Assembly (NCBI GenBank): GCA_965222115.1
Contig: CBDCTJ010000007.1
Coordinates: 2,592,001 to 2,656,000 of the forward strand
Length of the DNA: 64,000 nt
Source of the DNA: Planctomycetota bacterium
Lineage (GTDB): Bacteria > Planctomycetota > PLA2 > JAEUHO01
Reading direction: 5' to 3'
The notes under the pieces are model-generated. The model was not told where the DNA came from. It did not search any database and was given only the letters and a program-made list of their open reading frames with translations. Below, in pieces: positions 1,926-40,986 of this stretch. Both the position numbers and the translations under genes were made by a program. The stretch's first letter is position 1; every line of letters begins with the position of its first letter.

Positions 1926-4406
1926 ATGGCGAAGAAAAAGGCGTCCGGCGCGACTCCGGCCTATGAAAAGGCCTCGACGTTTTACTTGGGCAAGGGCATC
2001 GATCCGGGAGCGGATGCACCCCGCGACGATCTCTTGCTCTATGACGCCAAGGACCTGACGACGCACGGGATGTGTGTGGGCATGACGGGTTCTGGTAAGA
2101 CGGGTCTTTGCCTCTCCTTGCTGGAAGAGGCAGCGATTGACGGCATCCCCGCGATTGCCATTGATCCGAAGGGCGATCTGGGCAATCTCATGCTCACATT
2201 CCCCAAGCTCTCGCCGAGTGATTTTGAGCCGTGGGTGGATGAAGGTGAAGCGCTGCGCAAGGGCATGGATAAACAGGCTTACGCCAAGCGCATGGCCGAC
2301 CTATGGAAGAATGGATTGGCCGATTGGGGCCAAGACGGCGCTCGCATTCAGCGCTTTCGCGATGCGGTTGATTTGAGCATCTACACCCCGGGGAGTTCGG
2401 CGGGACGGCAACTGACGGTCTTGCGTTCGTTCAGTGCGCCCGCGGAAGCCGTGCGAGGTGACAACGAGGCGATGCGCGAACGTGTTAGCTCGTCGGTTTC
2501 CAGTTTGCTTTGTTTGCTGGGCGTGGATGCCGATCCGATTCAGAGTCGTGAACACATTTTGTTGTCAACCATCTTGCATAACGCCTGGACGGAGGGGACG
2601 GATCTAAGCCTTGCCGCCGTGATTCAAAAGATCCAGAAGCCGGGTGTGGACCGCATTGGCGTGTTTGATCTCGAGTCGTTCTTTCCCGAGAAAGATCGAT
2701 TCGCGCTGGCCATGACCATCAACAACCTGTTGGCGGCGCCAGCATTTGGTGCCTGGCTTGAAGGTGAACCCCTCGACATTCAGCGGTTGCTCTGGACGGA
2801 CGAAGGCAAGCCGCGGCTATCGATCATTTCCATCGCCCATCTCAACGAGTCGGAGCGCATGTTCTTTGTGACCTTGCTGCTTAGTGAAGTCGTGGCGTGG
2901 ATGCGCGGGCAGTCGGGCAGCACCAGTTTGCGTGCGATCGTATATATGGATGAAGTGTTTGGCTTCTTGCCTCCCACGGCGAACCCGCCCTCCAAACTGC
3001 CCATGTTGACAATGCTCAAGCAGGCGCGTGCCTACGGCGTGGGCATGATGCTCGCTACGCAAAACCCCGTGGATCTTGACTACAAGGCGCTCAGCAATAT
3101 GGGCACGTGGTTTCTCGGTCGCCTCCAGACGGAGCGCGACAAAATGCGCATTTTGGATGGTCTTGAGGGCGCGTCCCGTGCAAGCGGTGCATTCAACCGC
3201 GCGGAAGTCGAGGCCACCTTGTCGGGCCTCAAGAGTCGTGTGTTTCTCATGAACAACGTACACGACGATGGGCCGATGCTCTTTCACACGCGCTGGGCGC
3301 TTTCCTACCTTCGTGGCCCGCTTACACGCCAACAGATTAAAGTGCTTTCCGGGCAAAGTCCAGCGCCCGCCAAGCCGGTCGCAAAGCCCGCAACGAAGGC
3401 CGCCAAAGCGGCAACCAAGAGAGAAGTCGCCAAGGCTGATGGGGCGGTTCCTGTTTTGCCGCCTGGCATTGAAGCGCGTTACGTCGTACGTGAAAAGGCC
3501 ATGCGCGACGGTCAATCCTTGCTCTATCGTCCTGCATTGATGGCGCAGGGTCGGCTGCACTTTGTGAATGCGCGGCGCGATATCGATCAATGGGATGAAG
3601 AGGCACTCTTCGTTGCGTTGGAGGGCAAGGCCACGCGCCCCGACCTATGGGCCGATGCCACACCGCTCGGTACGTCGCTCTTGGAGGTCGAGGACGAACC
3701 CGAGGAGGGCGCGCGATTTGGCGAGTTGCCCGGCGCCGCCACCAAGAAGACCAGCTATACGTCGTGGAAGAAGAGACTGAAAGATCACTTCTATCGTGAG
3801 CGTACATTGATGCTCTTTCGTTGTCCCGCGCTCAAGCTTTATTCCGAAGCTGGCGAGAGTGAAGGCGACTTCCGCGCGCGCATGCAACTTGCCATTCGTG
3901 AGAAGCGCGACGAGGCGATTGAGAAACTCAAGAACAAGTATCGACCGAAACTCGAGCGTCTCGACGAGCGTATTCGCAAGAGCGAGCAAAAGGTCGACAA
4001 GGAACAAGAGCAGTACGAGGCGGCGAAGTCGTCATCCGTCATGTCCTGGGGCAAAACGATTTTGGGCGCCGTGCTCGGTCGAAAACTCGGAAGCATAGGC
4101 AATGTGTCTCGCGCGGGTACGGCCATGAGCCGCTCGGCAAAGATCGCCAAAGAAAAGGAAGATGTTCGTCGCGCGTCGGAGGACCTGGACACCGCAGTCG
4201 AAAACCTGGAGGAGATGGAGAAGGCCTTTGAAGCCGATCTTGATGAACTCAAAGCCAAGTATGCCGATGACGCCTTAGAAATCGAAGACAAGCCGATTCG
4301 TCCCCGTAAATCCGACATTGATGTGACTACGTGTGACCTCGTGTGGTTGCCATGGATCGTGGATGGTGATGGCGTGGCCACGCCCGGATTTGAGATCGAG
4401 AGCTAG
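1926..4406 (+). CDS. HerA/FtsK-superfamily P-loop ATPase (DUF87/DUF853-like) with C-terminal coiled coil
   Basis: Walker A GMTGSGKT, IDPKGD, Walker B VYMDE, RAYG..LATQNP sensor; long E/K-rich helical C-terminus. Confidence 0.82.
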   Translation: MAKKKASGATPAYEKASTFYLGKGIDPGADAPRDDLLLYDAKDLTTHGMCVGMTGSGKTGLCLSLLEEAAIDGIPAIAIDPKGDLGNLMLTFPKLSPSDFEPWVDEGEALRKGMDKQAYAKRMADLWKNGLADWGQDGARIQRFRDAVDLSIYTPGSSAGRQLTVLRSFSAPAEAVRGDNEAMRERVSSSVSSLLCLLGVDADPIQSREHILLSTILHNAWTEGTDLSLAAVIQKIQKPGVDRIGVFDLESFFPEKDRFALAMTINNLLAAPAFGAWLEGEPLDIQRLLWTDEGKPRLSIISIAHLNESERMFFVTLLLSEVVAWMRGQSGSTSLRAIVYMDEVFGFLPPTANPPSKLPMLTMLKQARAYGVGMMLATQNPVDLDYKALSNMGTWFLGRLQTERDKMRILDGLEGASRASGAFNRAEVEATLSGLKSRVFLMNNVHDDGPMLFHTRWALSYLRGPLTRQQIKVLSGQSPAPAKPVAKPATKAAKAATKREVAKADGAVPVLPPGIEARYVVREKAMRDGQSLLYRPALMAQGRLHFVNARRDIDQWDEEALFVALEGKATRPDLWADATPLGTSLLEVEDEPEEGARFGELPGAATKKTSYTSWKKRLKDHFYRERTLMLFRCPALKLYSEAGESEGDFRARMQLAIREKRDEAIEKLKNKYRPKLERLDERIRKSEQKVDKEQEQYEAAKSSSVMSWGKTILGAVLGRKLGSIGNVSRAGTAMSRSAKIAKEKEDVRRASEDLDTAVENLEEMEKAFEADLDELKAKYADDALEIEDKPIRPRKSDIDVTTCDLVWLPWIVDGDGVATPGFEIES

Positions 4407-4411
4407 CATTG

Positions 4412-5563
4412 ATGGCCGATGCACCCGACCCAAATGCGCAAGAGACGGTTCCATCTGGCCCCACGTGGGTTGTACCGGCTTTGCTTTGGTTGGTGTTGCT
4501 TGCTGGGGTTGCCGTGTTCGCGTTCGCGCATCCTCGCGCCGAGCAGCACGTTGGGCAACGGGTCATTCATCAAGTTGAGGCGGGCGGGCGCGATGTGCTT
4601 ACAGGTCGCCTTGCGGGCACTGACGGTACGCCCGTTATGCCCAAGATGGGTCCAGGATCTGCAGATCGTCCCTTGAAGCTGGCGTTTATTCCGCCCAGCG
4701 ATGCGGGCAAGGCGGGCGGCGCGATCGACAAAATGATGGCGTGGCTACGCCTGCGCACGGGCTACAACATCGAAGGTGCAATCCTCAAGAACTACGGGTT
4801 GGTGATTGAACAGATCGTTGTTGGCGAGTGTGACATTGCATTCTTGACCGCGACGAGCTACGCCCGTGCGCGCTACGCTACAGAGAATAACGACAGCGCT
4901 GAAGATGACATTGAAGCGTTCCTATCCGCCGTGCGGCAGGGCAATCCAAAGTATCCAGGCAGTGATCTTGCCTACCGGGCGGCCATCATTGTTCATAAGG
5001 ACTCGCCGCTAGAGAACGTCGCCGATCTGACGGACGAGCACAAGGTAGCCGTGGGGCCGCCGACCTCAGGTGCCAGCTATTTACTTCCTACAGCGCTGTT
5101 CAATGAGCTCGGCAAGTCGCCACGCTATGTGCCGTCCGGTGGCTACATGGTGATCATTACGTCCGTATTGCAGCAGTCGGTGGATGCCGGATGCATTTGG
5201 TGGTCGCCACCCAATCCCGATAATCCCATCAACGATGCGCGCATTACTGTCAAGAAAGCATCGCCGAACGTATTCGACGACACGCGAATCATTGGTTACT
5301 CGCGATGGATTCCCAATGAACCCGTGGTCATTCGCAAAGTCATTTCGCCTGAGATTCGACAGGCCATGGCGCGCGCACTCGCGCTGTACGTAAACACAAA
5401 GGGGCGCACGGAAGAAGGGCGACGCGAACTCGAGTTGGTTGGGAACATCGTCGGCTACATTCCCGCCACCAACAAGGACTACGACGTTCTAATGGAGACC
5501 ATTGAACGATCCTTTGCAAATGACCCCGAGGGCCGACGCGACTTCATGCGAGGTCGCAAGTGA
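4412..5563 (+). CDS. phnD: Phosphate/phosphite/phosphonate ABC transporter substrate-binding protein
   Basis: N-terminal hydrophobic helix; Y.AAIIV..DS, TSGASY..P, IPNEPVV motifs; overlaps phnC start (GTGA). Confidence 0.82.
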   Translation: MADAPDPNAQETVPSGPTWVVPALLWLVLLAGVAVFAFAHPRAEQHVGQRVIHQVEAGGRDVLTGRLAGTDGTPVMPKMGPGSADRPLKLAFIPPSDAGKAGGAIDKMMAWLRLRTGYNIEGAILKNYGLVIEQIVVGECDIAFLTATSYARARYATENNDSAEDDIEAFLSAVRQGNPKYPGSDLAYRAAIIVHKDSPLENVADLTDEHKVAVGPPTSGASYLLPTALFNELGKSPRYVPSGGYMVIITSVLQQSVDAGCIWWSPPNPDNPINDARITVKKASPNVFDDTRIIGYSRWIPNEPVVIRKVISPEIRQAMARALALYVNTKGRTEEGRRELELVGNIVGYIPATNKDYDVLMETIERSFANDPEGRRDFMRGRK

Positions 5564-6345
5564 ACGTGTCGAGGCCCATAGAACCCCTGCTCTCGATTTC
5601 AGACTTGAGACTGGTCTATCCCAATGGCTACGAGGCGCTGCGGGGTATCGACGTAGACATTGGCGCTGGTGAGTTTGTAGTCATTGTGGGGTTGTCGGGT
5701 GCCGGGAAGTCCACGTTTATTCGATGCCTCAATCGCCTCGTGCAGCCCACTGCGGGAACGATCCTCTTTGAGGGCGAAGACATTACGCACGTGGAGGGCG
5801 CCGAACTTCGGAGAGTTCGACAACGCCTTGCCATGATCTTTCAACGCTTCAATCTCATCAAGCGCACGTCGGTTCTGACAAACGTGCTCACCGGCTCGCT
5901 CAATCGACAGGGGACACTGGCCAGCTTATTCGGCATGTGGCCACGGGAAGATCGCGAGCGTGCTCAGCGATGCATGAAGCTCGTCGGTTTGGAGGGCTAC
6001 GAACGGCGCCGAGCCGATGCCCTCTCGGGCGGTCAGCAACAGCGTGTAGCGATTGCGCGCGCGCTCATGCAAGATCCGAAAGTGATCCTGGCCGATGAAC
6101 CGGTGGCGTCCTTGGATCCGGCAACGTCGCATAGCGTCATGCGGCATCTCAAAGCCTTGCAGGAGGAGCAGAGACTCACCATCATTGCGAATCTCCATTT
6201 CTTAAGTTTGGCGCGCGAATACGGAACGCGCGTTCTGGCACTTAAGGCCGGCGAACTGGTGTTTGATGGTCTTCCAAAGGACATTGACGAAGACCGTTTT
6301 CACAAGATCTACGGCGAGGACACCGCCGATGTGGAGCTTCACTAG
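5560..6345 (+). CDS. phnC: Phosphonate ABC transporter ATP-binding protein
   Basis: GLSGAGKST, MIFQRFNL, LSGGQQQRVAIARAL, LADEPVASLDP. Confidence 0.93.
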   Translation: MNVSRPIEPLLSISDLRLVYPNGYEALRGIDVDIGAGEFVVIVGLSGAGKSTFIRCLNRLVQPTAGTILFEGEDITHVEGAELRRVRQRLAMIFQRFNLIKRTSVLTNVLTGSLNRQGTLASLFGMWPREDRERAQRCMKLVGLEGYERRRADALSGGQQQRVAIARALMQDPKVILADEPVASLDPATSHSVMRHLKALQEEQRLTIIANLHFLSLAREYGTRVLALKAGELVFDGLPKDIDEDRFHKIYGEDTADVELH

Positions 6346-7634
6346 TGAGTGGCGCGCGCTTCGATGCCCCATGGTCGCGCTTGCGAGCGCGTTCAAGTGC
6401 ACTCGTCTTCGACATCGTGCTCGTCGCGTATGCACTCTGGTGCGTGCAGTACATCGCGACGCACTACAATCCCGATTGGGACTTTTTACGGCGCTACCCT
6501 GGCTTGTTGATGCTCACTTCTGTTGTTGCGGTGTTGTGGCATGCAAGCGGCGCGAGCCTTGGCATCGCGGGCCACCGCCTTCGTTTTGTTCACGCCGATT
6601 CGTCGAGTCGCACAGCGGCCAATCTCTCTCAGCGACTCACGTGGGGCGTTGCAACAGCGGTTTGGATCATGCTCTTCGCGTTGGCGATTTGGTTTGTTGG
6701 TGTGACCTGGGGCTCCGCGGCAATATGGCTCGCCTTGGCCGTTGCCGCCTGTTGGTTTGCTCTGTCGCAAGGTCCCCACGATAGCGTCGCTGAGCGAATC
6801 GCCGGTGTGCGCATCATGCGCGCCCGCGAACGGGATGTGCCCAAGGAGTTGATCCCTTGGACACGGCGCCCGGCCATGTGGGCGCTGTTGATCTTGTTGC
6901 TATTGACGTTCTGGGTGGGAGTCATTGTCACTCAGTTTGCGCTCGGCGATTTGAAGGACGGATTCAATAAGACGAAACCCATGTTTCGGGAACTGGTGAA
7001 TCCCGATACGACGATTGTGTCCGACGTCGTGGCGCGCATGATCGACACCGTGTTCATGGCGCTTATGGCGTCTGTGGTCGCCTTGCCATTCGCCTTTGGC
7101 TTGAGCTTTCTCGGGGCGCGAAACCTGACTCGAGACAGCGCATGGGGGCGCGTGTTCTACGCCATCGCGCGCGTGTTTATGAACGTGACGCGGTCGATTG
7201 AGCCACTCATCTGGGCCATCATCTTTGTGTTGTGGGTGGGGGCCGGGCCCTTTGCCGGCATGTTGGCGCTTACGGTGCATTCGATTGCCGCGCTCGGAAA
7301 ACTCTACAGCGAGGCGATCGAATCGATTGACGACGGACCATTGGAAGCGATGCGCGCAACAGGTGCCGACACGCTCCAGACCATTCGCTACGGCGTGGTT
7401 CCGCAAGTCATCCCGCCGTTTCTTTCGTTCACTGTGTATCGTTGGGACATCAATGTACGCATGGCTACCATCCTCGGCATCATTGGCGGTGGGGGCATTG
7501 GCGATCTGTTGGTGAACTACAGCCAGATTGGATCGTGGTCGAAAGTGGGCACGATTATCTTCTTTATCACAATTGTTGTGTGGGCGATGGACATGGCCTC
7601 GGGGAAGGCTCGCGAACTATTGATGAAAGATTGA
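6345..7634 (+). CDS. phnE: Phosphonate ABC transporter permease with extra N-terminal (RDD-like) membrane domain
   Basis: GPFAGMLAL, KLYSEAIE, EAMRATGA (EAA loop), YRWDINVR.ATILG..GGGGIG; ~170 aa N-terminal extension. Confidence 0.9.
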   Translation: MSGARFDAPWSRLRARSSALVFDIVLVAYALWCVQYIATHYNPDWDFLRRYPGLLMLTSVVAVLWHASGASLGIAGHRLRFVHADSSSRTAANLSQRLTWGVATAVWIMLFALAIWFVGVTWGSAAIWLALAVAACWFALSQGPHDSVAERIAGVRIMRARERDVPKELIPWTRRPAMWALLILLLLTFWVGVIVTQFALGDLKDGFNKTKPMFRELVNPDTTIVSDVVARMIDTVFMALMASVVALPFAFGLSFLGARNLTRDSAWGRVFYAIARVFMNVTRSIEPLIWAIIFVLWVGAGPFAGMLALTVHSIAALGKLYSEAIESIDDGPLEAMRATGADTLQTIRYGVVPQVIPPFLSFTVYRWDINVRMATILGIIGGGGIGDLLVNYSQIGSWSKVGTIIFFITIVVWAMDMASGKARELLMKD

Positions 7635-7826
7635 TTCCTCAATCCCTCGCCGAATCCATCTCCGAATTTGAATCCTTTGCCTGGCCCTTTCCTGTATCCG
7701 CACTCGGGTCGTCGCAATTGCGCTCAACGAATTTGGGAATTTCACCTGAGTGGCGCAACGCGAGCCGCCTGCGGTTGCCCGCCCCGCAGGCTCTGCGTCT
7801 CTGCGCGAGGCGTTCTTCTTAAACGC

Positions 7827-9242
7827 CTAGTTCTTTTTCTGCCGATACAGCCACACATGCCCCGTCGCGACAGTGTCGACGTGCTTGCTACGGGTGCGGT
7901 AGAACGCTGAATACTCAGTGCGAAGCTTCTTTACGTAGCCCTGAAGCGCCTTTACGCGGGCCTCGATTTTGGCATCGTCGAACTCGGACAAATCCTCGGG
8001 AGGATTATCACTTCCTTTGTCTCCTGGATCTTCACTAGCTGCATGCTCGCCGTCCTCGGCACTCAGTGCGTTGGCCGCAGCGGCTTTTTGGAGCAATTGG
8101 CGAGCGGATTCGACCGTAGATTTGTAGCCGTTGGCCACACGCGACGCGGCATTCAATTCATCGCGCTTGACTTTGAGGGCCGCTTGGAACTTGGCCTCGA
8201 GCTTCTTGGTTTCTTCCAGGCTTACGTCCACCTTAGGGGTGCTAAAGCGCACAAGATCGCCGAGCAAGATATCGAGTGCCCCATCGCCGTCGTAGTCGGT
8301 TACCCAGAGGCGTGTACATGTTGACGGAGGCACCTCCGTATCACGCGGCAATATGCCCGATAAGCGCTTTGCTGGTCCGGGAATCAGTTCTTCGAAATCT
8401 CCAAAGGAGGGCACGCCATCGTCACCAGGATTGTTCTTTGAAATCTGGACACCGCCCGTGGTGCTTCCACTCAACAAATCGAAGTCCCCGTCGCCATCAA
8501 AGTCAACGAGATGGGGGGCCGAGTGCATGCCTTCAATCTTTAGGGGCTCCCCCTTGGCACTCTTCAGCAGGATGGGCTCGCCGGTGAATTTTGGCTCCTT
8601 CTTGGTGCCCACGTTCGTAGCAAGCAAGAACGTGCCCTCGAAGTTGCCAATGACAAAGTCAAGATCGCCGTCCTGATCCCAGTCGATGGCGAACGGTTCG
8701 GTACAGATGTGGCGTGTGCGGGGTGCATTGGGCGTATCGGTGAGGACCAGGTGCCGATCCTCGGCGGTCTTAAGCGCAACGGGTTTTGCATAGTCGCCTT
8801 CGCCTTTGCCGTACAGCACATAGACGGGTGCGTGCATGACCTTGAGCCCCTTGCCTGTGTAGCAGCCGGATACGATATCGAGGTGACCGTCGTCGTTGAG
8901 ATCCACAAACTGTGGGGTTGAACTGGCGCATCACCACACGCCCGGCACTTCGGCGATTTTGTCGCCTACACGAATCCAATCGCCCTGGGCGAATGCCGGG
9001 GCCTCGTTGGACCCGGTGTTTTTGAAGGCGTGCATCTTGCCGGATTTGAATTGTCCGACGACAAGATCCTTCAGATCGTCGCCATCGATGTCCACAAAGG
9101 TGGGGCAGGCGTATCCGGGCGACTCCACCGCGATCGGTTGATCGCCCGCTTTTAGCAGCTCGGGCTCATGAAACTCGGTGGCCCAGGCCGTGCTGCTCAG
9201 AAGGCCGAGCGACGCGGCGACAACGATCGTCTTGATACTCAT
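7827..9242 (-). CDS. Secreted FG-GAP/VCBS-repeat beta-propeller protein with in-frame UGA (candidate selenoprotein)
   Basis: ORFs 8931..9242 and 7827..8906 are in one frame, separated only by TGA (8931-8933): ...EVPGVW*CASSTPQFVDLNDDG...; signal peptide at N-terminus; DxDGDGxxD repeats on both sides of the TGA. Confidence 0.75.
8903..8930 (-). promoter_or_regulatory. Putative bacterial SECIS-like hairpin immediately 3' of in-frame UGA
   Basis: Minus-strand CCACA-GUU-UGUGG stem-loop; loop starts with G about 20 nt after the UGA. Confidence 0.4.
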
Positions 9243-9252
9243 GCGCGAGAGT

Positions 9253-10929
9253 CTACTTCACGGCGTCGTGTGTGTTCAAGCTGCCGATGCTCGCGGGGGA
9301 GAGCCCCAAGAAGTTCGCGTCGAGCGCGCCACTTACGACGGCGAACACTTCATCCTGCATGGGACCGGTTGCGTAAATAAGGGGAGACGAGAGATTGCGA
9401 CCGTTCGCTGCCGCGAATTCATTGGCTTCCGGCACGAATTGGGTGCCAAAGCCGGAGCCAGTTACGACGTTGTGCGGGAGGGAGAGCGCATACAGCGTGC
9501 CGCCCTTCGGCGTGGGTGATGCGAACAGGTCGCCAAAAGTCGTGGCAATCAATGTGCGTCCATCGCCTGAAAGTGCAACGCCAGAGATGTTTCGACCGGG
9601 CACCGATGCGCCGGATGGTTGAACGATGGGAATGCCATTGCCTACGCCGCGTAGGATGGCAAGTTGGTTGGGTGCAATGACCGGCGAGTACAACCCCTTT
9701 AGATTGAGAAGGTAGATTTCGCCCGTGATCTGGGATGGAAAGAAGCCAACATAGTTGCCCGCACCATCTTGGCCAATGGCCGGTGGTTTGGCCGCAAGCG
9801 CCGCCATGCCCATAGCGAACCACCCTTCGCGATAGCCGGATACGGCGTCATAGGCTTCTACGGCGGCAGGCGTGGCGGGAATCAGATTGAAGTTGGCGTC
9901 GGCACCAAGCGCGCCGGCCACGGTCACCAAGAGGCGGGGGGTGGGCGGATTGCCGGGCGGCGATTGTGGGTAGATGACGGAAAGCTCTACCGGATTGTAG
10001 TGAAGGGTTTGAAGGGTGCGCGTGCTACGACCCGCTTCTGGAAATTGCGATACGGGTAGCGGTGCGCCTTGCGTGACGCGAAAACACTGCAAGGTCCCCG
10101 GGTTCCAGATGGCCGGGTAGGTGTTCGTTGCATTTGCCATCGCGACGTAAAGCAAATCCTGTCCGTTTATGCCGGGCACATACGCAATGCCCTCCGCACT
10201 GCTCTGCATGAACGTGCTCGAATTGACGTACGCGCCATTGCTATCCACAAGTTGCGTCGTGGAATCGCTGTAGGGAATCGCCAGGTTGACGACCTGAACG
10301 ATGGCGCCCGTGGACGGATTGAAGACAATGAGATTGGAGAGATTGGGGCGGGTATCGGAGCCGCCGGCATTTACGAGTGCGAATCCCAGCGTGGGGGACG
10401 CCACCGCCAAGTCATTGACGAAGAACCCGAATCCAATTGGACTGGCCAGCGACGCCGGTTGCCCGAGCGCATCCACGAGATCCATATCGCGAATCATGGT
10501 GGGTAGAAAGAGCGCACTGGGTACAAGGCCGGAAGCCGTCATGTCCACAGGGACAATGCGCGCATTTGACGAGTCGATCTCATCCGCGTCAACGGTAAAG
10601 AGTGTGTCGCCGTATCGCTCCAAGTCGCTGGGGTAGGCGCCAAAGTAGGGTACGCGTCCGTGTTGATACGCGTTCTCGTTCCAAACGGGCTGTACCGTGG
10701 GTGCAGGTGGTGGAACCACGCCACCACTTCCATTGCCACCGTTTCCGTTCCCGCCGCCTCCGATGTATGGGCCATCTACGAATGGCGAACCGCCGATCAC
10801 AAACGGCGTTGATCCACCTCCGCCGCCTCCACAAGCGCTCATGAGGCATAAGGCAAGCGCTGCGAAAGCAAATCGTGAAACGGCACGGACCCGACTGCGC
10901 GGTTGTGAGATCGAATAACGTAAAGACAT
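9253..10929 (-). CDS. Lipoprotein, predicted beta-propeller, under cobalamin riboswitch control
   Basis: Lipobox LMSAC followed by Gly-rich linker; beta-rich body with IVFNPSTG, ALSGDGRTL blade-like segments; AAGGA RBS; start may be 10935. Confidence 0.75.
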   Translation of the reverse strand: MSLRYSISQPRSRVRAVSRFAFAALALCLMSACGGGGGGSTPFVIGGSPFVDGPYIGGGGNGNGGNGSGGVVPPPAPTVQPVWNENAYQHGRVPYFGAYPSDLERYGDTLFTVDADEIDSSNARIVPVDMTASGLVPSALFLPTMIRDMDLVDALGQPASLASPIGFGFFVNDLAVASPTLGFALVNAGGSDTRPNLSNLIVFNPSTGAIVQVVNLAIPYSDSTTQLVDSNGAYVNSSTFMQSSAEGIAYVPGINGQDLLYVAMANATNTYPAIWNPGTLQCFRVTQGAPLPVSQFPEAGRSTRTLQTLHYNPVELSVIYPQSPPGNPPTPRLLVTVAGALGADANFNLIPATPAAVEAYDAVSGYREGWFAMGMAALAAKPPAIGQDGAGNYVGFFPSQITGEIYLLNLKGLYSPVIAPNQLAILRGVGNGIPIVQPSGASVPGRNISGVALSGDGRTLIATTFGDLFASPTPKGGTLYALSLPHNVVTGSGFGTQFVPEANEFAAANGRNLSSPLIYATGPMQDEVFAVVSGALDANFLGLSPASIGSLNTHDAVK

Positions 10930-11071
10930 AGCCATCCTTTCGCCGGCATCGAAGTGCGGATGCGCGCAGGATGGAGGGTTCGAAAGCAAGGCCGTGCGCG
11001 TGTCACTGCCAGCCTTGCCGTCGGCCTTCCATTCCTTCGAGCCGGAAGAAAAAGAAACCAAGGAACAGGTG

Positions 11072-11300
11072 ACGAGGTCCGTCTTCTGGCTTCCGATTCA
11101 TCCTTCCACCGCGCCTTCCCATGCCGGTGAATCCTCGCGCTTCAACGAGCGCGAAAATCTACGCGGCACAGTGGCTGCACGCCCATTGGGCATGCGTTGC
11201 GGTGGTCGTCCTCGGTTACAGCGGCGGTCCCGCGGGGGAATTGCACCCCACTTCCGTTCGAACCAAGCGGCCCGAACAATCGACTTCGACACCCAGCATT
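11072..11300 (-). ncRNA. Cobalamin (B12) riboswitch
   Basis: Minus strand reads ACGGAAGTGGGGTGCAATTCCCCCGCGGGACCGCCGCTGTAA ... GCCACTG ... TGGGAAGGC ... AAGCCAGAAGAC (B12 box), the conserved B12-element motifs in the correct order; boundaries approximate. Confidence 0.9.
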
Positions 11301-11451
11301 CCGCGGCGTACGTCCCATGGAGCGCTTCGTCGCGAAATGTTCCGAATTGAAAAGAGCGGCCCGGAGAATACGGCCCCGAGACACCACTTTCCATTGTTGA
11401 CCTGGGCTTCGAGGCACGCGAAATTGCCGGCGCCTTTCAGATTCACAGCGT

Positions 11452-11527
11452 GGGGCTGTAGCTCAATTGGTAGAGCGCTTGAATGGCATTCAAGAGGTAA
11501 GGGGTTCGATCCCCCTCAGCTCCACCA
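11452..11527 (+). tRNA. tRNA-Ala (GGC)
   Basis: 76 nt cloverleaf GGGGCTGTAGCTCAATTGGTAGAGCG..CTTGA-ATGGCAT-TCAAG..GGTTCGATCC..CAGCTCCACCA; G3:U70 Ala determinant; encoded CCA. Confidence 0.97.
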
Positions 11528-11551
11528 CCACGCTGACCGACGCTACTTCCA

Positions 11552-11741
11552 AGACGTCCACCCTTCGTGCGCGTCAATCTTTCGATGCGCACTGGGCGAA
11601 TCAACGATCCGTTGGTGCTTACTCAGGGTCTCGCGCAAATGGCTAAGCCATTTACTCTTGACGTCCACGTCGCTGGGCGAATTGTTCATCGGGCGCTTAT
11701 GCCTGAGTCCGGGTTTCGGGTTTTGGGTTTCGGGTAACGGG
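11552..11741 (-). repeat. Dispersed composite repeat family A, copy 1 (inverted; single GTGGAC unit in tract)
   Basis: Reverse complement of the core seen at 42650-42740 and 62700-62766 (GTAAATGGCTTAGCCATTTGC..GACCCTGAGTAAGCACCA.CGGATC..GAAGGGTGGAC) plus CCCG heptamers. Confidence 0.85.
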
Positions 11742-38967: not shown

Positions 38968-40986
38968 GTGCGACAGGCCAAGCCTGGACAAGGAGGAACT
39001 CATGACGTGACGAAACCTTGTGATGGAGCCCAACGGGTAACCAATCCCGTCCGGCCAAGCTGACCGAGCAGCCGGAAGCAAACCTAGCGCGCTCTGTGGG
39101 TAACTGCGGGGTGTGAAGCACTAGGCAAGCGTGTGTGCGGGCTGTGTGATTGAGCCTCGAAATTCTTATGACTGCGGTGGCCGACGATGTTCTTTGATCG
39201 GAAGGCACCATCGGAGACGAGCGTGTAGGTCTGCTCCCTCCGGCCCGCCGGGGTCTATGAGCAGGGCACGTACACAAAGGGGCTTCCCCAGGAACCTGTG
39301 AGATCCCATGCTGTCCTTCGAGAACTCGGCGCGGAAGGGCCGTAGACACTTCCAGCAATACGCAGCACGAGGCACACGCTTGTGTTGGGTGCGAAACAAG
39401 CGTGTGAAACGAAGGTACGGCGTCGCGAAGTCACCCGAGCGGCGCTGGACGCAGGTGGGAAGTCGGAGCGCTCCGTAGTACCGATGAACGGGGGGAACCT
39501 TTCACCAAGGGACCCTCGGGAGGGATGGGAGCGCCGCTATGTGTACTCCGTAGGAGGGAACCATGACAGAGATCCCAAGCTTTGATCCCGTGTTACCGAA
39601 ACTCCGACGGATCGCAATGCTTGCGAAGCAATCCCCGGAGATGGCGTTCACGTCGTTGAACTCCGCTCTGGACATGACGTTACTGCGTGAAGCGCATCGG
39701 CGAACGCGCAAAGGAGGCGCAACGGGCATAGATCGCCAGACGGCGCAGGATTACGCGAAGGACCTGGAGAGCAATCTCCAGAGCCTGCTAAACCGTGCCA
39801 AGTCCGGCGACCGTTACCGCGCACCTCCTGTGCGACGTGTGCATATTCCCAAGGACAAGCCCGGGGAGACTCGGCCCCTGGGGATACCGACGTTTGAGGA
39901 CAAGATCCTCCAACGCGCGGTGGCCATGATTCTGGAATCCATCTACGAACAGGACTTTGACTCCTGCTCGTACGGTTTCCGGCCTGGCCGCTCGGCACAC
40001 GATCTGTTGGCTGCACTTCGTAACTCGATGATGAACATGAACGGCGGGTGGGTGCTTGAAGCCGATATCCGCAAGTTCTTCGACAGCGTCGATCACGCGC
40101 AGCTAATGGACGTGCTTCGCAAGCGGGTGCGAGATGGTGTGATTTTGCGATTGATTGGCAAGTGGCTAAATGCAGGTGTCATGGAGGATGGCCGCGTGAG
40201 CTATCCCAAAGGAACTGGTACGCCGCAAGGCGGAGTGATCTCCCCCGTGTTGGCCAACATCTTCCTCCATGAAGTGTTGGACACCTGGTGGAAAGAAGAT
40301 GTCGCCCCTCGCATGAAGGGGGAGGCGCATCTCTTTCGTTACGCAGATGACTTCGTGATTGTATTCGCTCGTGAAGCGGATGCACGGCGTGTGATGGACG
40401 TCGTTCCAAAGCGCTTCGACAAGTACGGCCTTGCCATCCACCCAGATAAGACTCGCTTGGTGCGATTCAAACGCCCGCGGCACTACGACTCCGATCATGA
40501 TTCGGAAACGTTCGACCTGTTGGGCTTTACGCATCTATGGAGTCGATCCCGTAAGGGATACTGGGTGATTCGGCAGTTGACCGCACGAAGTCGGTATCGC
40601 CGCGGTCTGACGCGGATGTCCAAGTGGCTCCGCTCCGTCCGCCACCAACCTGTGCATTGGCAGCGTACAAAACTGGCACAAAAACTCCAGGGGCATTACG
40701 CCTACTACGGGGTGACTGGCAATACGCGTCGGCTGCACAACTTCCGGCGGGAAGCCATACGGCTTTGGAGGTACTGGCTGTGCCGCCGTTCACAGCGCGC
40801 CAAGATGCCATGGGATCGTTTCAACCGACTCCTACAGCATCACCCCATTCCACCATCACGTGTCACGCGCTCGATCTATCGCGCCACCTAATCGGCGACC
40901 CACATAGCGAGGAGCCGGATGCGGTAATCCCGCACGTCCGGATCTGTAGGGGGGCTGGGGAGGGAAACCTCCCCGGCCTACCCGAC
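38968..40986 (+). mobile_element. Complete group II intron (~2.0 kb)
   Basis: 5' GTGCGACAGG; domain V GAGCCGGATGCGGTAATCCCGCACGTCCGGATC (~40912-40945); domain VI with bulged A ending CTACCCGAC; EBS1 TCTTTG (39191-39196) complementary to exon CAAAGA (38962-38967); both ends supported by the empty allele at 11836/11837. Confidence 0.93.
39563..40891 (+). CDS. ltrA: Group II intron reverse transcriptase/maturase, no HNH endonuclease domain
   Basis: RRVHIPK..RPLGIP..DKILQ, SYGFRPGRS, DIRKFFD, GTPQGG.ISP.LANI.L, YADD, FDLLGF, domain X GHYAYY. Confidence 0.96.
   Translation: MTEIPSFDPVLPKLRRIAMLAKQSPEMAFTSLNSALDMTLLREAHRRTRKGGATGIDRQTAQDYAKDLESNLQSLLNRAKSGDRYRAPPVRRVHIPKDKPGETRPLGIPTFEDKILQRAVAMILESIYEQDFDSCSYGFRPGRSAHDLLAALRNSMMNMNGGWVLEADIRKFFDSVDHAQLMDVLRKRVRDGVILRLIGKWLNAGVMEDGRVSYPKGTGTPQGGVISPVLANIFLHEVLDTWWKEDVAPRMKGEAHLFRYADDFVIVFAREADARRVMDVVPKRFDKYGLAIHPDKTRLVRFKRPRHYDSDHDSETFDLLGFTHLWSRSRKGYWVIRQLTARSRYRRGLTRMSKWLRSVRHQPVHWQRTKLAQKLQGHYAYYGVTGNTRRLHNFRREAIRLWRYWLCRRSQRAKMPWDRFNRLLQHHPIPPSRVTRSIYRAT

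Follow-up and report, generated by a model that had tools for sequence, protein, structure and literature searches.

A cobalamin riboswitch paired with an unannotated beta-propeller lipoprotein, a candidate corrinoid-capture protein, in a B12-auxotrophic order of Planctomycetota

Propeller lipoproteins of known B12 regulons and the present locus

Most bacteria require vitamin B12 yet cannot synthesize it, and, to our knowledge, how B12 is acquired in non-model environmental phyla is largely unknown. The targets of cobalamin riboswitches that we know of so far serve uptake, biosynthesis or B12-independent isozymes. Among the described systems, the closest to the lipoprotein reported here are the BtuG proteins (BtuG1-3) of Bacteroides thetaiotaomicron, whose structures (PDB 3DSM and 8BMZ) are cited in PMC6143338 and PMC13616437. 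BtuG was reported to be exclusive to Bacteroidetes (PMC6143338), and the ligand face of BtuG2 is reported to carry a strong negative charge (PMC13616437). BtuK1 and BtuK2, also from Bacteroides, are described in PMC13616437 as lipoproteins consisting of a PKD Ig-fold and a seven-bladed propeller, and BtuK1 binds cyanocobalamin.

We analysed a locus of a Planctomycetota genome at which a cobalamin riboswitch stands before a single lipoprotein gene; the whole stretch of DNA analysed, 64,000 nucleotides in length, is called the window below. With BtuG, this lipoprotein shares B12-riboswitch control, a lipoprotein signal, a seven-bladed propeller (predicted here) and an acidic surface, and the hosts of both are B12 auxotrophs with MetH and without MetE. 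BtuG genes adjoin btuB, and BtuG caps BtuB, whereas the lipoprotein gene here has no neighbouring btuB and belongs to a putatively monocistronic unit. The proteins further differ in that the present propeller is attached through a tether some 40 residues long. Its propeller domain is also long, comprising about 484 residues as compared with about 300-400 in seven-bladed propellers of the PDB, with only about 290-315 residues aligned. PF16819/DUF5074, the presumed family of BtuG, gave no match at E<=1 in the lipoprotein, in the 24 family members or in the genome, nor was any found in 22 other genomes of the order (0/16 in f1 and 0/6 in f2) in the phylum sample, and the same model did give a match in the Bacteroides thetaiotaomicron genome as a control. 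BtuK resembles the lipoprotein in being a seven-bladed-propeller lipoprotein of a B12 regulon. No description of this lipoprotein family was found among the papers listed on B12 or cobalamin riboswitches in Planctomycetota or on propeller lipoproteins in cobalamin-riboswitch regulons.

The riboswitch, its leader and the lipoprotein

The features of the conserved part of the locus are as follows.

11452..11527, plus strand: tRNA-Ala(GGC), a synteny marker, since a tRNA lies beside the riboswitch in most homologous loci
11059..11303, minus strand: cobalamin riboswitch aptamer (RF00174), from the covariance-model score over the full model, 1-189
10936..11058, minus strand: leader that runs from the aptamer to the start codon, a candidate expression platform, from folding and a terminator scan
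9253..10935, minus strand: lipoprotein gene, an open reading frame of 560 aa from the ATG at 10935 or 558 aa from the ATG at 10929
10831..10935, minus strand: signal peptide and lipobox (LMSA-C), from the translation and the alignment
10708..10830, minus strand: Gly/Pro-rich flexible tether of about 40 residues past the lipid-anchored Cys, from pLDDT and the alignment
9256..10707, minus strand: predicted seven-bladed beta-propeller domain with insertions, residues ~75-558, from AlphaFold

The riboswitch matched RF00174 over all 189 model positions (64.5 bits, gathering score 31.5, E 1.2e-13). Stretches of the conserved core and of the B12 box (GGUGCAAUUCC, CUGUAACC, GCCACUG, GGGAAGGC and AGCCAGAAGAC) were aligned to the RF00174 consensus. 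This aptamer is the only RF00174 match in the whole 4.55 Mb genome. It belongs to the same aptamer family as the switches of canonical cobalamin-riboswitch regulons (btuB, btuFCD, cob/cbi, metE and nrd), and the same logic of repression by B12 would be expected; unlike in those regulons, however, its sole target is an unannotated family. The genome keeps none of the usual targets under a riboswitch, and its btuCFD-like cluster has no riboswitch either; a BtuF-like binding protein is encoded on C7 at about 433-434 kb. No terminator-like site was seen on the minus strand within the leader. In the minimum-free-energy fold of 196 nt, AAGGA and the AUG region lie inside a local hairpin (z -2.5), and this modelled hairpin might serve as part of the expression platform.

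The protein is 558 aa long in its database copy and carries a lipoprotein signal of the signal peptidase II type (...FAFAALALCLMSA-C-GGGGG), the lipobox Cys (C33) of which is invariant in 24/24 aligned homologues; from this signal, the lipoprotein is likely to be located in the envelope. Residues 30-46 and 58-68, in the tether, have an AlphaFold pLDDT below 50, and the Gly and Pro runs of the tether are conserved in kind throughout the alignment. The remainder of the AlphaFold model is an all-beta, confident seven-bladed beta-propeller. All 24 members of the family are acidic (median pI 4.57, median net charge -17), and the family alignment contains no invariant His, Cys or Met suggestive of cobalt coordination. 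Neither Pfam nor NCBIfam gave a match to the lipoprotein, and in a profile search against the PDB sequences (listing threshold E<=10) nothing came up beyond a best match at E 0.17. Judged by sequence comparison, the lipoprotein falls into a narrow family of Planctomycetota for which neither Pfam nor NCBIfam has an entry; its closest homologue (P0003) has 74% identity, and a metagenome scan for close relatives gave a single weak partial match.

Most of the structural description in the original prediction held up under this analysis. It had placed a full B12 element on the minus strand at about 11300-11072 and had proposed a covariance-model check, which returned the full-length match given above; it had also described a lipoprotein of about 558 aa with LMSAC and a Gly linker, and had called the protein a beta-propeller, in agreement with the 558-560 aa reading frame, the GGGGG that follows LMSA-C, and the AlphaFold model. 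Its statement that no btuB, btuFCD, metE or nrdAB gene is adjacent was likewise correct: the neighbours are the tRNA-Ala(GGC), two ORFs without a family, and, in addition to the gene discussed in the last section, the following transporter.

4409-7634, opposite strand: phnD/C/E-like ABC transporter

Conservation of the pair and the B12 economy of the order

We compared 23 homologous loci, five of which are cut at the 5' end. RF00174 was found directly upstream of the lipoprotein gene, on the same strand, in all 18 loci having upstream sequence, and outside the order in three of four distant homologues (G095, G119 and G143), so that homologues do keep the riboswitch, as the original prediction had suggested should be checked. 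When the best 48 first-look candidates per genome were scored for all 40 genomes of the order, exactly one RF00174 match was obtained in 36 of them and more than one in none; these are related MAGs, and the counts are not independent. The match lies immediately upstream of a family member in 32 of the 36 genomes (29 members recognised by protein search and three divergent ones by hhalign, with probabilities of 100, 100 and 99.9). In the other four (G005, G018, G022 and G027), the switch and a 5'-truncated lipoprotein gene are on different contigs, at contig ends. On these counts, no gene other than that of the lipoprotein stands under riboswitch control in this B12-auxotrophic order.

The usual synteny, found in most loci, is a tRNA followed by the lipoprotein gene and then by NfeD-FloA genes; the latter were found after the lipoprotein gene in five annotated homologous loci. 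The riboswitch-lipoprotein unit is read as monocistronic. The downstream gene has a start signal of its own, a TANNNT-N6-8-start layout read by eye, in 14/18 homologous loci. A DUF3352 protein considered as a conserved downstream partner was rejected, being present only at L038 and L039 (genomes G034 and G035, of one genus); in the genome studied here, DUF3352 matches are about 95 kb or more away from the lipoprotein.

The order lacks late steps of cobalamin synthesis: CobS, CbiB and BtuR were each found in 0/40 genomes, and CbiC and MetE gave no match in the present genome. MetH, on the other hand, matched in 40/40 genomes (36 above the cut-off), and the order must therefore import B12. In addition to MetH, the present genome has methylmalonyl-CoA mutase, IcmF, a B12-radical-SAM protein and a PduO-type adenosyltransferase. 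One genome of the order, G032 (93% complete), has neither riboswitch nor lipoprotein; it is the only one with a strong MetE (509 bits), and no other genome has as its sole MetH match one restricted to the N-terminal homocysteine-methyltransferase part of the model (154 bits). G032 retains three B12-binding domains. The joint loss of the lipoprotein and MetH in this genome links the lipoprotein gene to the B12 economy. In G039 (86% complete), MetH is present, and neither switch nor lipoprotein was found. Two TonB-dependent receptors occur in the genome, at C7:218723 and C7:2509248. The nearer of them is about 92 kb from the lipoprotein gene, which thus has no such receptor beside it in the window, and both look siderophore- or heme-like. 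Transporter genes are not linked to the lipoprotein anywhere in the order.

Proposed function, the adjoining FG-GAP gene and rival readings

We consider, with a probability of roughly 60%, that the lipoprotein is a corrinoid-capture protein under the control of the B12 riboswitch, and that the FG-GAP gene next to it is a mere neighbour with a probable promoter of its own. Corrinoid capture is the best reading of the comparative sequence data because the protein is a beta-propeller specific to the lineage, placed under a riboswitch in genomes that are B12-auxotrophic. In a B12-replete cell, the cobalamin riboswitch would repress this single acidic lipoprotein gene. The most likely activity of the lipoprotein is to bind corrinoids outside the cytoplasm, from where they would be fed into uptake. 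It would thereby be a functional analogue of BtuG and BtuK from an unrelated sequence family, with no dedicated BtuB as a neighbour. A further proposal, which we put forward tentatively and regard as somewhat doubtful, is that the lipoprotein is a stand-alone, BtuB-independent invention of the Planctomycetota, that B12 acquisition in the order is regulated at this one step, and that the vitamin is passed on to an uptake route other than a dedicated TonB-dependent B12 receptor. In that case, unrelated phyla would have arrived independently at the use of propeller lipoproteins for B12 capture.

The gene downstream in the window has the following features.

7827..9242, minus strand: FG-GAP repeat protein gene of 471 codons (Pfam FG-GAP_3 at 7.9e-15)
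9250..9255, minus strand: TAGACT, a hexamer resembling a -10 box, 7 nt ahead of the FG-GAP ATG and overlapping the lipoprotein stop codon

This gene contains an in-frame TGA at codon 104 (window 8933-8931; motif W-U-C). The UGA column is the same, with the motif W/G-U-C, in 10/10 aligned FG-GAP copies, and one TGA is present in 26 of the 28 FG-GAP matches among those listed for the order, the other two being C-terminal fragments. A tRNA-SeC (anticodon tca) is present on contig C7, and a selD match of 150.6 bits was obtained that is read through stops and lies at a contig end. No SECIS hairpin past the UGA was evident by minimum-free-energy folding (77 nt from the UGA, -15.7 kcal/mol, z +1.19). 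Taken from the sequence, the UGA is probably a selenocysteine codon; no description of an FG-GAP selenoprotein was found in the literature on selenoproteins and FG-GAP.

It had been proposed originally that this Sec/Cys propeller and the lipoprotein, apparently co-transcribed, form one B12 module in which the lipoprotein captures the corrinoid and the other protein binds or reduces the cobalt centre. The 10-nt gap on which this idea drew is real (lipoprotein stop TAG at 9255-9253, FG-GAP ATG at 9242), and co-transcription is possible because the gap is so short and no terminator-like site lies between the genes; both proteins are also exported, to judge from the signal-like N-terminus of the FG-GAP protein, and the U-C pair could be redox-active. 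Co-transcription is not safe to assume, however, since the FG-GAP ATG is preceded by its own leaderless-type -10 box (TAGACT and 7 nt). In this genome, TANNNT-N6-8-start signals show an enrichment of about 10-fold at gene starts, a sigma-70 promoter scan of 7500-11600 gave 0 sites, and the FG-GAP gene probably has its own leaderless promoter. The distribution of the two genes also speaks against the partnership. At none of the 23 homologous loci was an FG-GAP homologue found within 6 kb. Such homologues occur in 19/40 genomes of the order and adjoin the lipoprotein gene in this genome only, the other 18 having them elsewhere; in G008, for example, contig C44 carries the closest copy (58% identity) and contig C10 the lipoprotein. 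Moreover, 17 of the 21 genomes with no FG-GAP homologue at E<=1e-10 still have the lipoprotein. The NfeD-FloA genes of the present genome are on another contig than the lipoprotein, which points to rearrangement, and the best explanation for the FG-GAP selenoprotein gene is that of a lineage-specific neighbour placed by rearrangement, outside the conserved unit. We therefore regard the two proteins as very improbable partners. Of the module originally predicted, the lineage-specific corrinoid-capture part gains comparative evidence from the riboswitch pairing, the auxotrophy and the propeller, and the FG-GAP part is not upheld.

Apart from corrinoid capture, two other roles of the lipoprotein itself have to be weighed. 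The protein may be an extracytoplasmic enzyme of the lactonase/YVTN-propeller type or a corrinoid-processing factor, induced at B12 limitation and, for example, releasing or remodelling corrinoids held in environmental complexes instead of binding them with high affinity; riboswitch control and auxotrophy would fit such a role equally well. Look-alikes found with a protein language model were clusters named 'Lactonase, 7-bladed beta-propeller' and YVTN (scores 0.90-0.91), and YncE of E. coli (3VGZ) and Lp49 of Leptospira (3BWS) were among the top structural matches (the best 50 of hundreds of near-tied propellers). These structural scores are, however, tied with those of non-enzymatic eukaryotic WD40 proteins, and the likeness to YncE and Lp49 is thus one of fold class only; the structural comparison proposed in the original prediction, as far as these best 50 matches go, supported the propeller fold. 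Pfam YNCE (PF21783) and Lactonase (PF10282) matched none of the 24 members at E<=1, and no obvious conserved cluster of catalytic metal-binding His/Asp was visible by eye in the alignment; we consider this reading unlikely. We know of no link between B12 and either YncE or Lp49. A role unrelated to corrinoid acquisition, either as a cell-surface or envelope protein tuned to B12 status as an environmental cue or as an extracytoplasmic substitute for a B12-dependent process, would agree with the housekeeping synteny of most loci, with the missing transporter linkage and with a structure that has no B12-specific feature. We nevertheless consider it improbable. The established targets of cobalamin riboswitches are those named at the outset, the co-loss with MetH in G032 speaks against it, and an exported substitute is hard to picture because the B12-dependent enzymes found in this genome are all cytoplasmic.

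Corrinoid capture by the lipoprotein, if confirmed, would be of interest beyond this locus. An entire uncultured order of Planctomycetota has no late cobalamin-synthesis genes, depends on MetH, and places its sole B12 switch before one unannotated lipoprotein family. Should that family bind corrinoids, it would represent a new B12-capture scaffold beyond the Bacteroidota, working with no partner BtuB, and would add to the ways of vitamin scavenging that are known. The gene could become a metagenome marker of B12 dependence, and its product a new high-affinity binder to study. Riboswitch context would also have proved able to assign function to dark protein families, in a case in which the true signal, the riboswitch-lipoprotein pair, could be distinguished from the misleading adjacency of the selenoprotein gene.

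Among the distant homologues, those of G095 and G119 have an N-terminal Ig-like IPT/TIG domain ahead of the propeller, and therefore share the domain order described for BtuK, an Ig-like domain followed by a propeller; the window protein, unlike BtuK, has no Ig-like domain, and the comparison is with the description of BtuK and not with its sequence. ORFs of 645 and 626 aa downstream of these two homologues were rejected as a conserved partner, being unrelated to each other and to DUF3352, and may be spurious frames. In G095, a gene for an MsrA-BtuR/CobO fusion adjoins the riboswitch in divergent orientation.

Pairing of the cobalamin riboswitch with one lipoprotein family

The features of the locus, in window positions, are as follows.

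11059-11303, minus strand: cobalamin riboswitch RF00174 (whole-window Rfam scan; 64.5 bits against a gathering score of 31.5, E 1.2e-13, model positions 1-189 of 189)
9253 (end) to a likely start at ATG 10935 (560 aa) or ATG 10929 (558 aa), minus strand: lipoprotein gene, the next minus-strand ORF after the riboswitch
7827-9242, minus strand: FG-GAP gene of 471 codons, with FG-GAP repeats (PF13517, 7.9e-15) and an in-frame TGA at codon 104 (8931-8933)

The original prediction had described a B12 riboswitch, a lipoprotein, a 10-nt gap, and a UGA-containing FG-GAP gene with no B12 genes adjoining, and this description proved correct in every point. The Rfam match spans the full model, and its alignment contains the conserved core and the B12-box region. 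The TAG stop of the lipoprotein gene (9255-9253) is separated by 10 nt from the ATG of the FG-GAP gene at 9242. No btuB, btuFCD, metE, or nrd genes adjoin the riboswitch-lipoprotein unit in the window; its neighbors are a convergent phnD/C/E-like ABC transporter, tRNA-Ala(GGC), and ORFs without family. The plus-strand genes at 1926-7634, which converge on the FG-GAP gene, encode a HerA-like ATPase of 826 aa and, after it, the PhnD-like binding protein, PhnC, and PhnE of a phosphonate-type ABC transporter. Elsewhere in the window, group II intron domains at 39041-39263 and 40910-40986 (plus strand; RF02005, 113 bits, and RF00029, 42.5 bits) mark a mobile group II intron.

No intrinsic terminator was found in the leader between the aptamer and the lipoprotein start, and folding of this leader indicates that a local hairpin may cover the ribosome-binding region. 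At other loci, the aptamer match ends 13-161 nt ahead of the chosen start codon, which is a rough figure.

When prokaryotes were scanned at one genome per species, 23 homologous loci emerged, all from Planctomycetota MAGs. In each of the 18 loci whose sequence extends upstream of the lipoprotein gene, RF00174 immediately precedes that gene in the same orientation; the remaining five (L008, L017, L019, L021, and L022) start inside the lipoprotein gene. Protein searches of 40 genomes of the order, which largely cover the same genomes as the 23 loci so that the two counts are not independent, detected the lipoprotein in 35 including this one, namely in 28 of 28 others of its own family and in 6 of the 11 sister-family genomes. 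With the best 48 first-look candidates scored per genome, RF00174 occurred exactly once in 36 of the 40 genomes and never more than once; this genome gave one match with 150 of 173 candidates scored. Cross-tabulation of coordinates placed the switch immediately upstream of the lipoprotein gene in 29 genomes. In three others (G030, G034, and G035), the ORF after the switch was found by profile comparison to be a divergent family member that had escaped the single-protein search (probabilities 100, 100, and 99.9; E 1e-40 to 7e-36), and hence the switch precedes a family member in 32 of 36 genomes. In G005, G018, G022, and G027, the lipoprotein gene runs off the end of a contig and the switch is found on a different one, in three of these genomes within about 200 nt of that contig's end. 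The lipoprotein gene is 5'-truncated and no switch was found in G007 and G024, and neither element was found in G032 and G039.

When 401 genomes sampled across the phylum were searched by profile, only four more genomes, all outside the order, carried the family: G095, G119, and G143, each with RF00174 just upstream of the homolog (86-109 bits), and G063, with a partial match near a contig start. The cobalamin aptamer is genuine and is strictly paired with one exported lipoprotein family in the order and in three outlying genomes. Separately, in one genus of the sister family, the gene right after that of the lipoprotein encodes a DUF3352 protein of about 658 aa, with gaps of 13 and 48 nt (L038:1588-3567 and L039:1425-3401, both minus strand); this adjacency is not conserved beyond these two loci.

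A candidate corrinoid-capture lipoprotein in B12 auxotrophs

The lipoprotein matched no Pfam or NCBIfam family, and no published description of its family was found in the open-access literature. Among 5.8 billion proteins searched by word index, 38 relatives turned up (42-74% identity), nearly all of 500-564 aa, none with a Pfam domain, and the named ones annotated as 'hypothetical protein' from Planctomycetes. Against 1.84 billion cluster representatives, a profile of the family had only 73 matches at E<=1e-3 and 24 at E<=1e-30. Judged from these searches, the family is very narrow. The N-terminus comprises a signal peptide that ends in the lipobox LMSA-C, then GGGGG and a region rich in Gly and Pro. 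An alignment of 24 members shows no change at the lipobox Cys, and its conserved motifs include PIGFGF, NAGGSD, QSGAE, and GFGDLF; all 24 members are acidic (median pI 4.57, median net charge -17). AlphaFold2 run on this alignment (mean pLDDT 84.0, pTM 0.85) modeled the N-terminal 70 residues as disordered and residues about 75-558 as all-beta, and the predicted fold is a beta-propeller. Language-model look-alikes were lactonase or YVTN-type propellers (0.90-0.91).

CobS, CbiB, and BtuR/CobO were each found in 0 of the 40 genomes of the order and MetH in all 40 (36 over the curated cut-off); accordingly, the members of the order are B12 auxotrophs and depend on the vitamin to make methionine. 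CobS, CbiC, and MetE were not detected in this genome (90% complete). It has five B12-binding domains and encodes MetH (1265 aa), a fused methylmalonyl-CoA mutase, IcmF, a B12-radical-SAM protein, a CarH-like regulator, and a PduO-type adenosyltransferase. For import across the inner membrane, it carries a btuC/btuF/ATPase-like cluster that scores below equivalog cut-offs and is without a riboswitch; its two TonB-dependent receptors are similar to receptors for siderophores and heme rather than to BtuB. G032, a sister-family genome (93% complete) and one of the two genomes without both riboswitch and lipoprotein, holds the order's only strong, full MetE match (509 bits, C86:16791-17756; all others <=112 bits). 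Full-length MetH was not detected there, the sole MetH match (154 bits) being confined to the N-terminal homocysteine-methyltransferase portion of the model. As a single case, G032 agrees with a gene whose usefulness follows the need for B12, and it seems to have changed over to B12-independent methionine synthesis and lost the B12 unit; it nonetheless keeps three B12-binding domains.

Cobalamin riboswitches shut off expression when B12 is abundant; the genes they control serve uptake or biosynthesis or encode B12-independent isozymes. A biosynthetic role for the lipoprotein is excluded because the pathway is absent, and an isozyme role is implausible because the lipoprotein is exported while all B12 enzymes found here are cytoplasmic; therefore, acquisition remains. 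PMC6143338 and PMC13616437 describe Bacteroides BtuG and BtuK1 as lipoproteins under riboswitch control whose seven-bladed propellers bind corrinoids through a single acidic face, with BtuG capping BtuB. This nearest precedent, together with acquisition as the role left, led us to the proposal that the lipoprotein, tethered via its lipid and a 40-residue linker, would capture corrinoids and hand them to an uptake route encoded elsewhere, to which we assign a probability of about 0.6. The original prediction of a corrinoid-capture protein is partly supported, by conserved riboswitch pairing, propeller fold, and auxotrophy, and capture itself is proposed from this context. The case is strongest in its clean 'one switch, one gene' regulon and in the auxotrophy.

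The lipoprotein is proposed to work like BtuG but outside the BtuG family, which PMC6143338 reports as confined to Bacteroidetes. PF16819/DUF5074, presumed to be the BtuG family model, had no match in the lipoprotein, in any of 24 relatives at E<=1, or in this genome; the control genome of B. thetaiotaomicron gave a match, and the phylum sample gave weak partial matches in 11 of 401 genomes, none in this order. Whereas BtuG caps BtuB, the lipoprotein here has no adjoining btuB. The G095 and G119 homologs have an IPT/TIG Ig-like domain ahead of the propeller, which recalls the PKD-plus-propeller layout of BtuK as a likeness of layout alone. Divergent beside the G095 switch (L085:9762-10904, plus strand) lies an MsrA-BtuR/CobO fusion of peptide methionine sulfoxide reductase and ATP:corrinoid adenosyltransferase, a small independent link to corrinoid metabolism.

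The FG-GAP gene: linkage, transcription, and predicted selenocysteine

The FG-GAP protein had been put forward as a partner in one B12 module, and this idea is not supported by co-conservation: by tblastn, none of the 23 homologous loci has an FG-GAP homolog within 6 kb. In the five annotated loci (L004, L005, L006, L010, and L020), genes for NfeD1b, a short NfeD, and the flotillin FloA come after the lipoprotein instead, and most other loci have ORFs of the same sizes there. Because NfeD and FloA lie on contig C3 in this genome, the FG-GAP gene was placed beside the lipoprotein by rearrangement. FG-GAP homologs occur in 19 of the 40 genomes of the order, and in the 18 besides this one always away from the lipoprotein; the closest copy (58% identity), in G008, is on C44 and the lipoprotein on C10.

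Co-transcription of the two genes, also predicted, is left half standing. No terminator-like site was found between them, so read-through is possible; on the other side, the FG-GAP ATG has its own TAGACT (9250-9255, minus strand) 7 nt ahead of it. Read by eye, a TANNNT hexamer (TACCAT, TAGGAT, TAGACT, TACGAT, TACAAT, TATGAT, or TACACT) lies 6-8 nt before the start of whichever gene follows the lipoprotein in 14 of 18 homologous loci (L002-L006, L009-L012, L014, L015, L018, L020, and L023). Across the whole genome, 159 of 2303 first start codons in long ORFs have this layout ahead of them (6.9%), versus 328 of 48,710 internal ATG/GTG codons (0.67%). TANNNT-N6-8-start thus reads as a leaderless-transcript signature, and suggests that leaderless mRNAs are common in this lineage of planctomycetes. 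We infer that the unit under the riboswitch normally yields a monocistronic transcript, and transcription of the FG-GAP gene may well begin at a start of its own.

The UGA-containing family, with homologs in L050-L058, has no NCBIfam family, and no published FG-GAP selenoprotein was found in the open-access literature. A SECIS hairpin after the UGA was not evident by simple MFE folding. Exactly one TGA is present in 26 of the 28 FG-GAP matches listed, the two without being C-terminal fragments, and in ten aligned copies it falls at one column, in the motif GVW-U-C-(T/A)SSTPQF or G-U-C-VGFGPQ. This genome has a tRNA-Sec on contig C7 and a selD match at the very end of contig C1 (G000:C1:654443-655201, minus strand; 150.6 bits, with five TGA and one TAA read through) that may be frameshifted, mis-assembled, or partly in the wrong frame. 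The conserved TGA column, tRNA-Sec, and selD match thus point to a probable selenoprotein family with a predicted U-C (Sec-Cys) pair.
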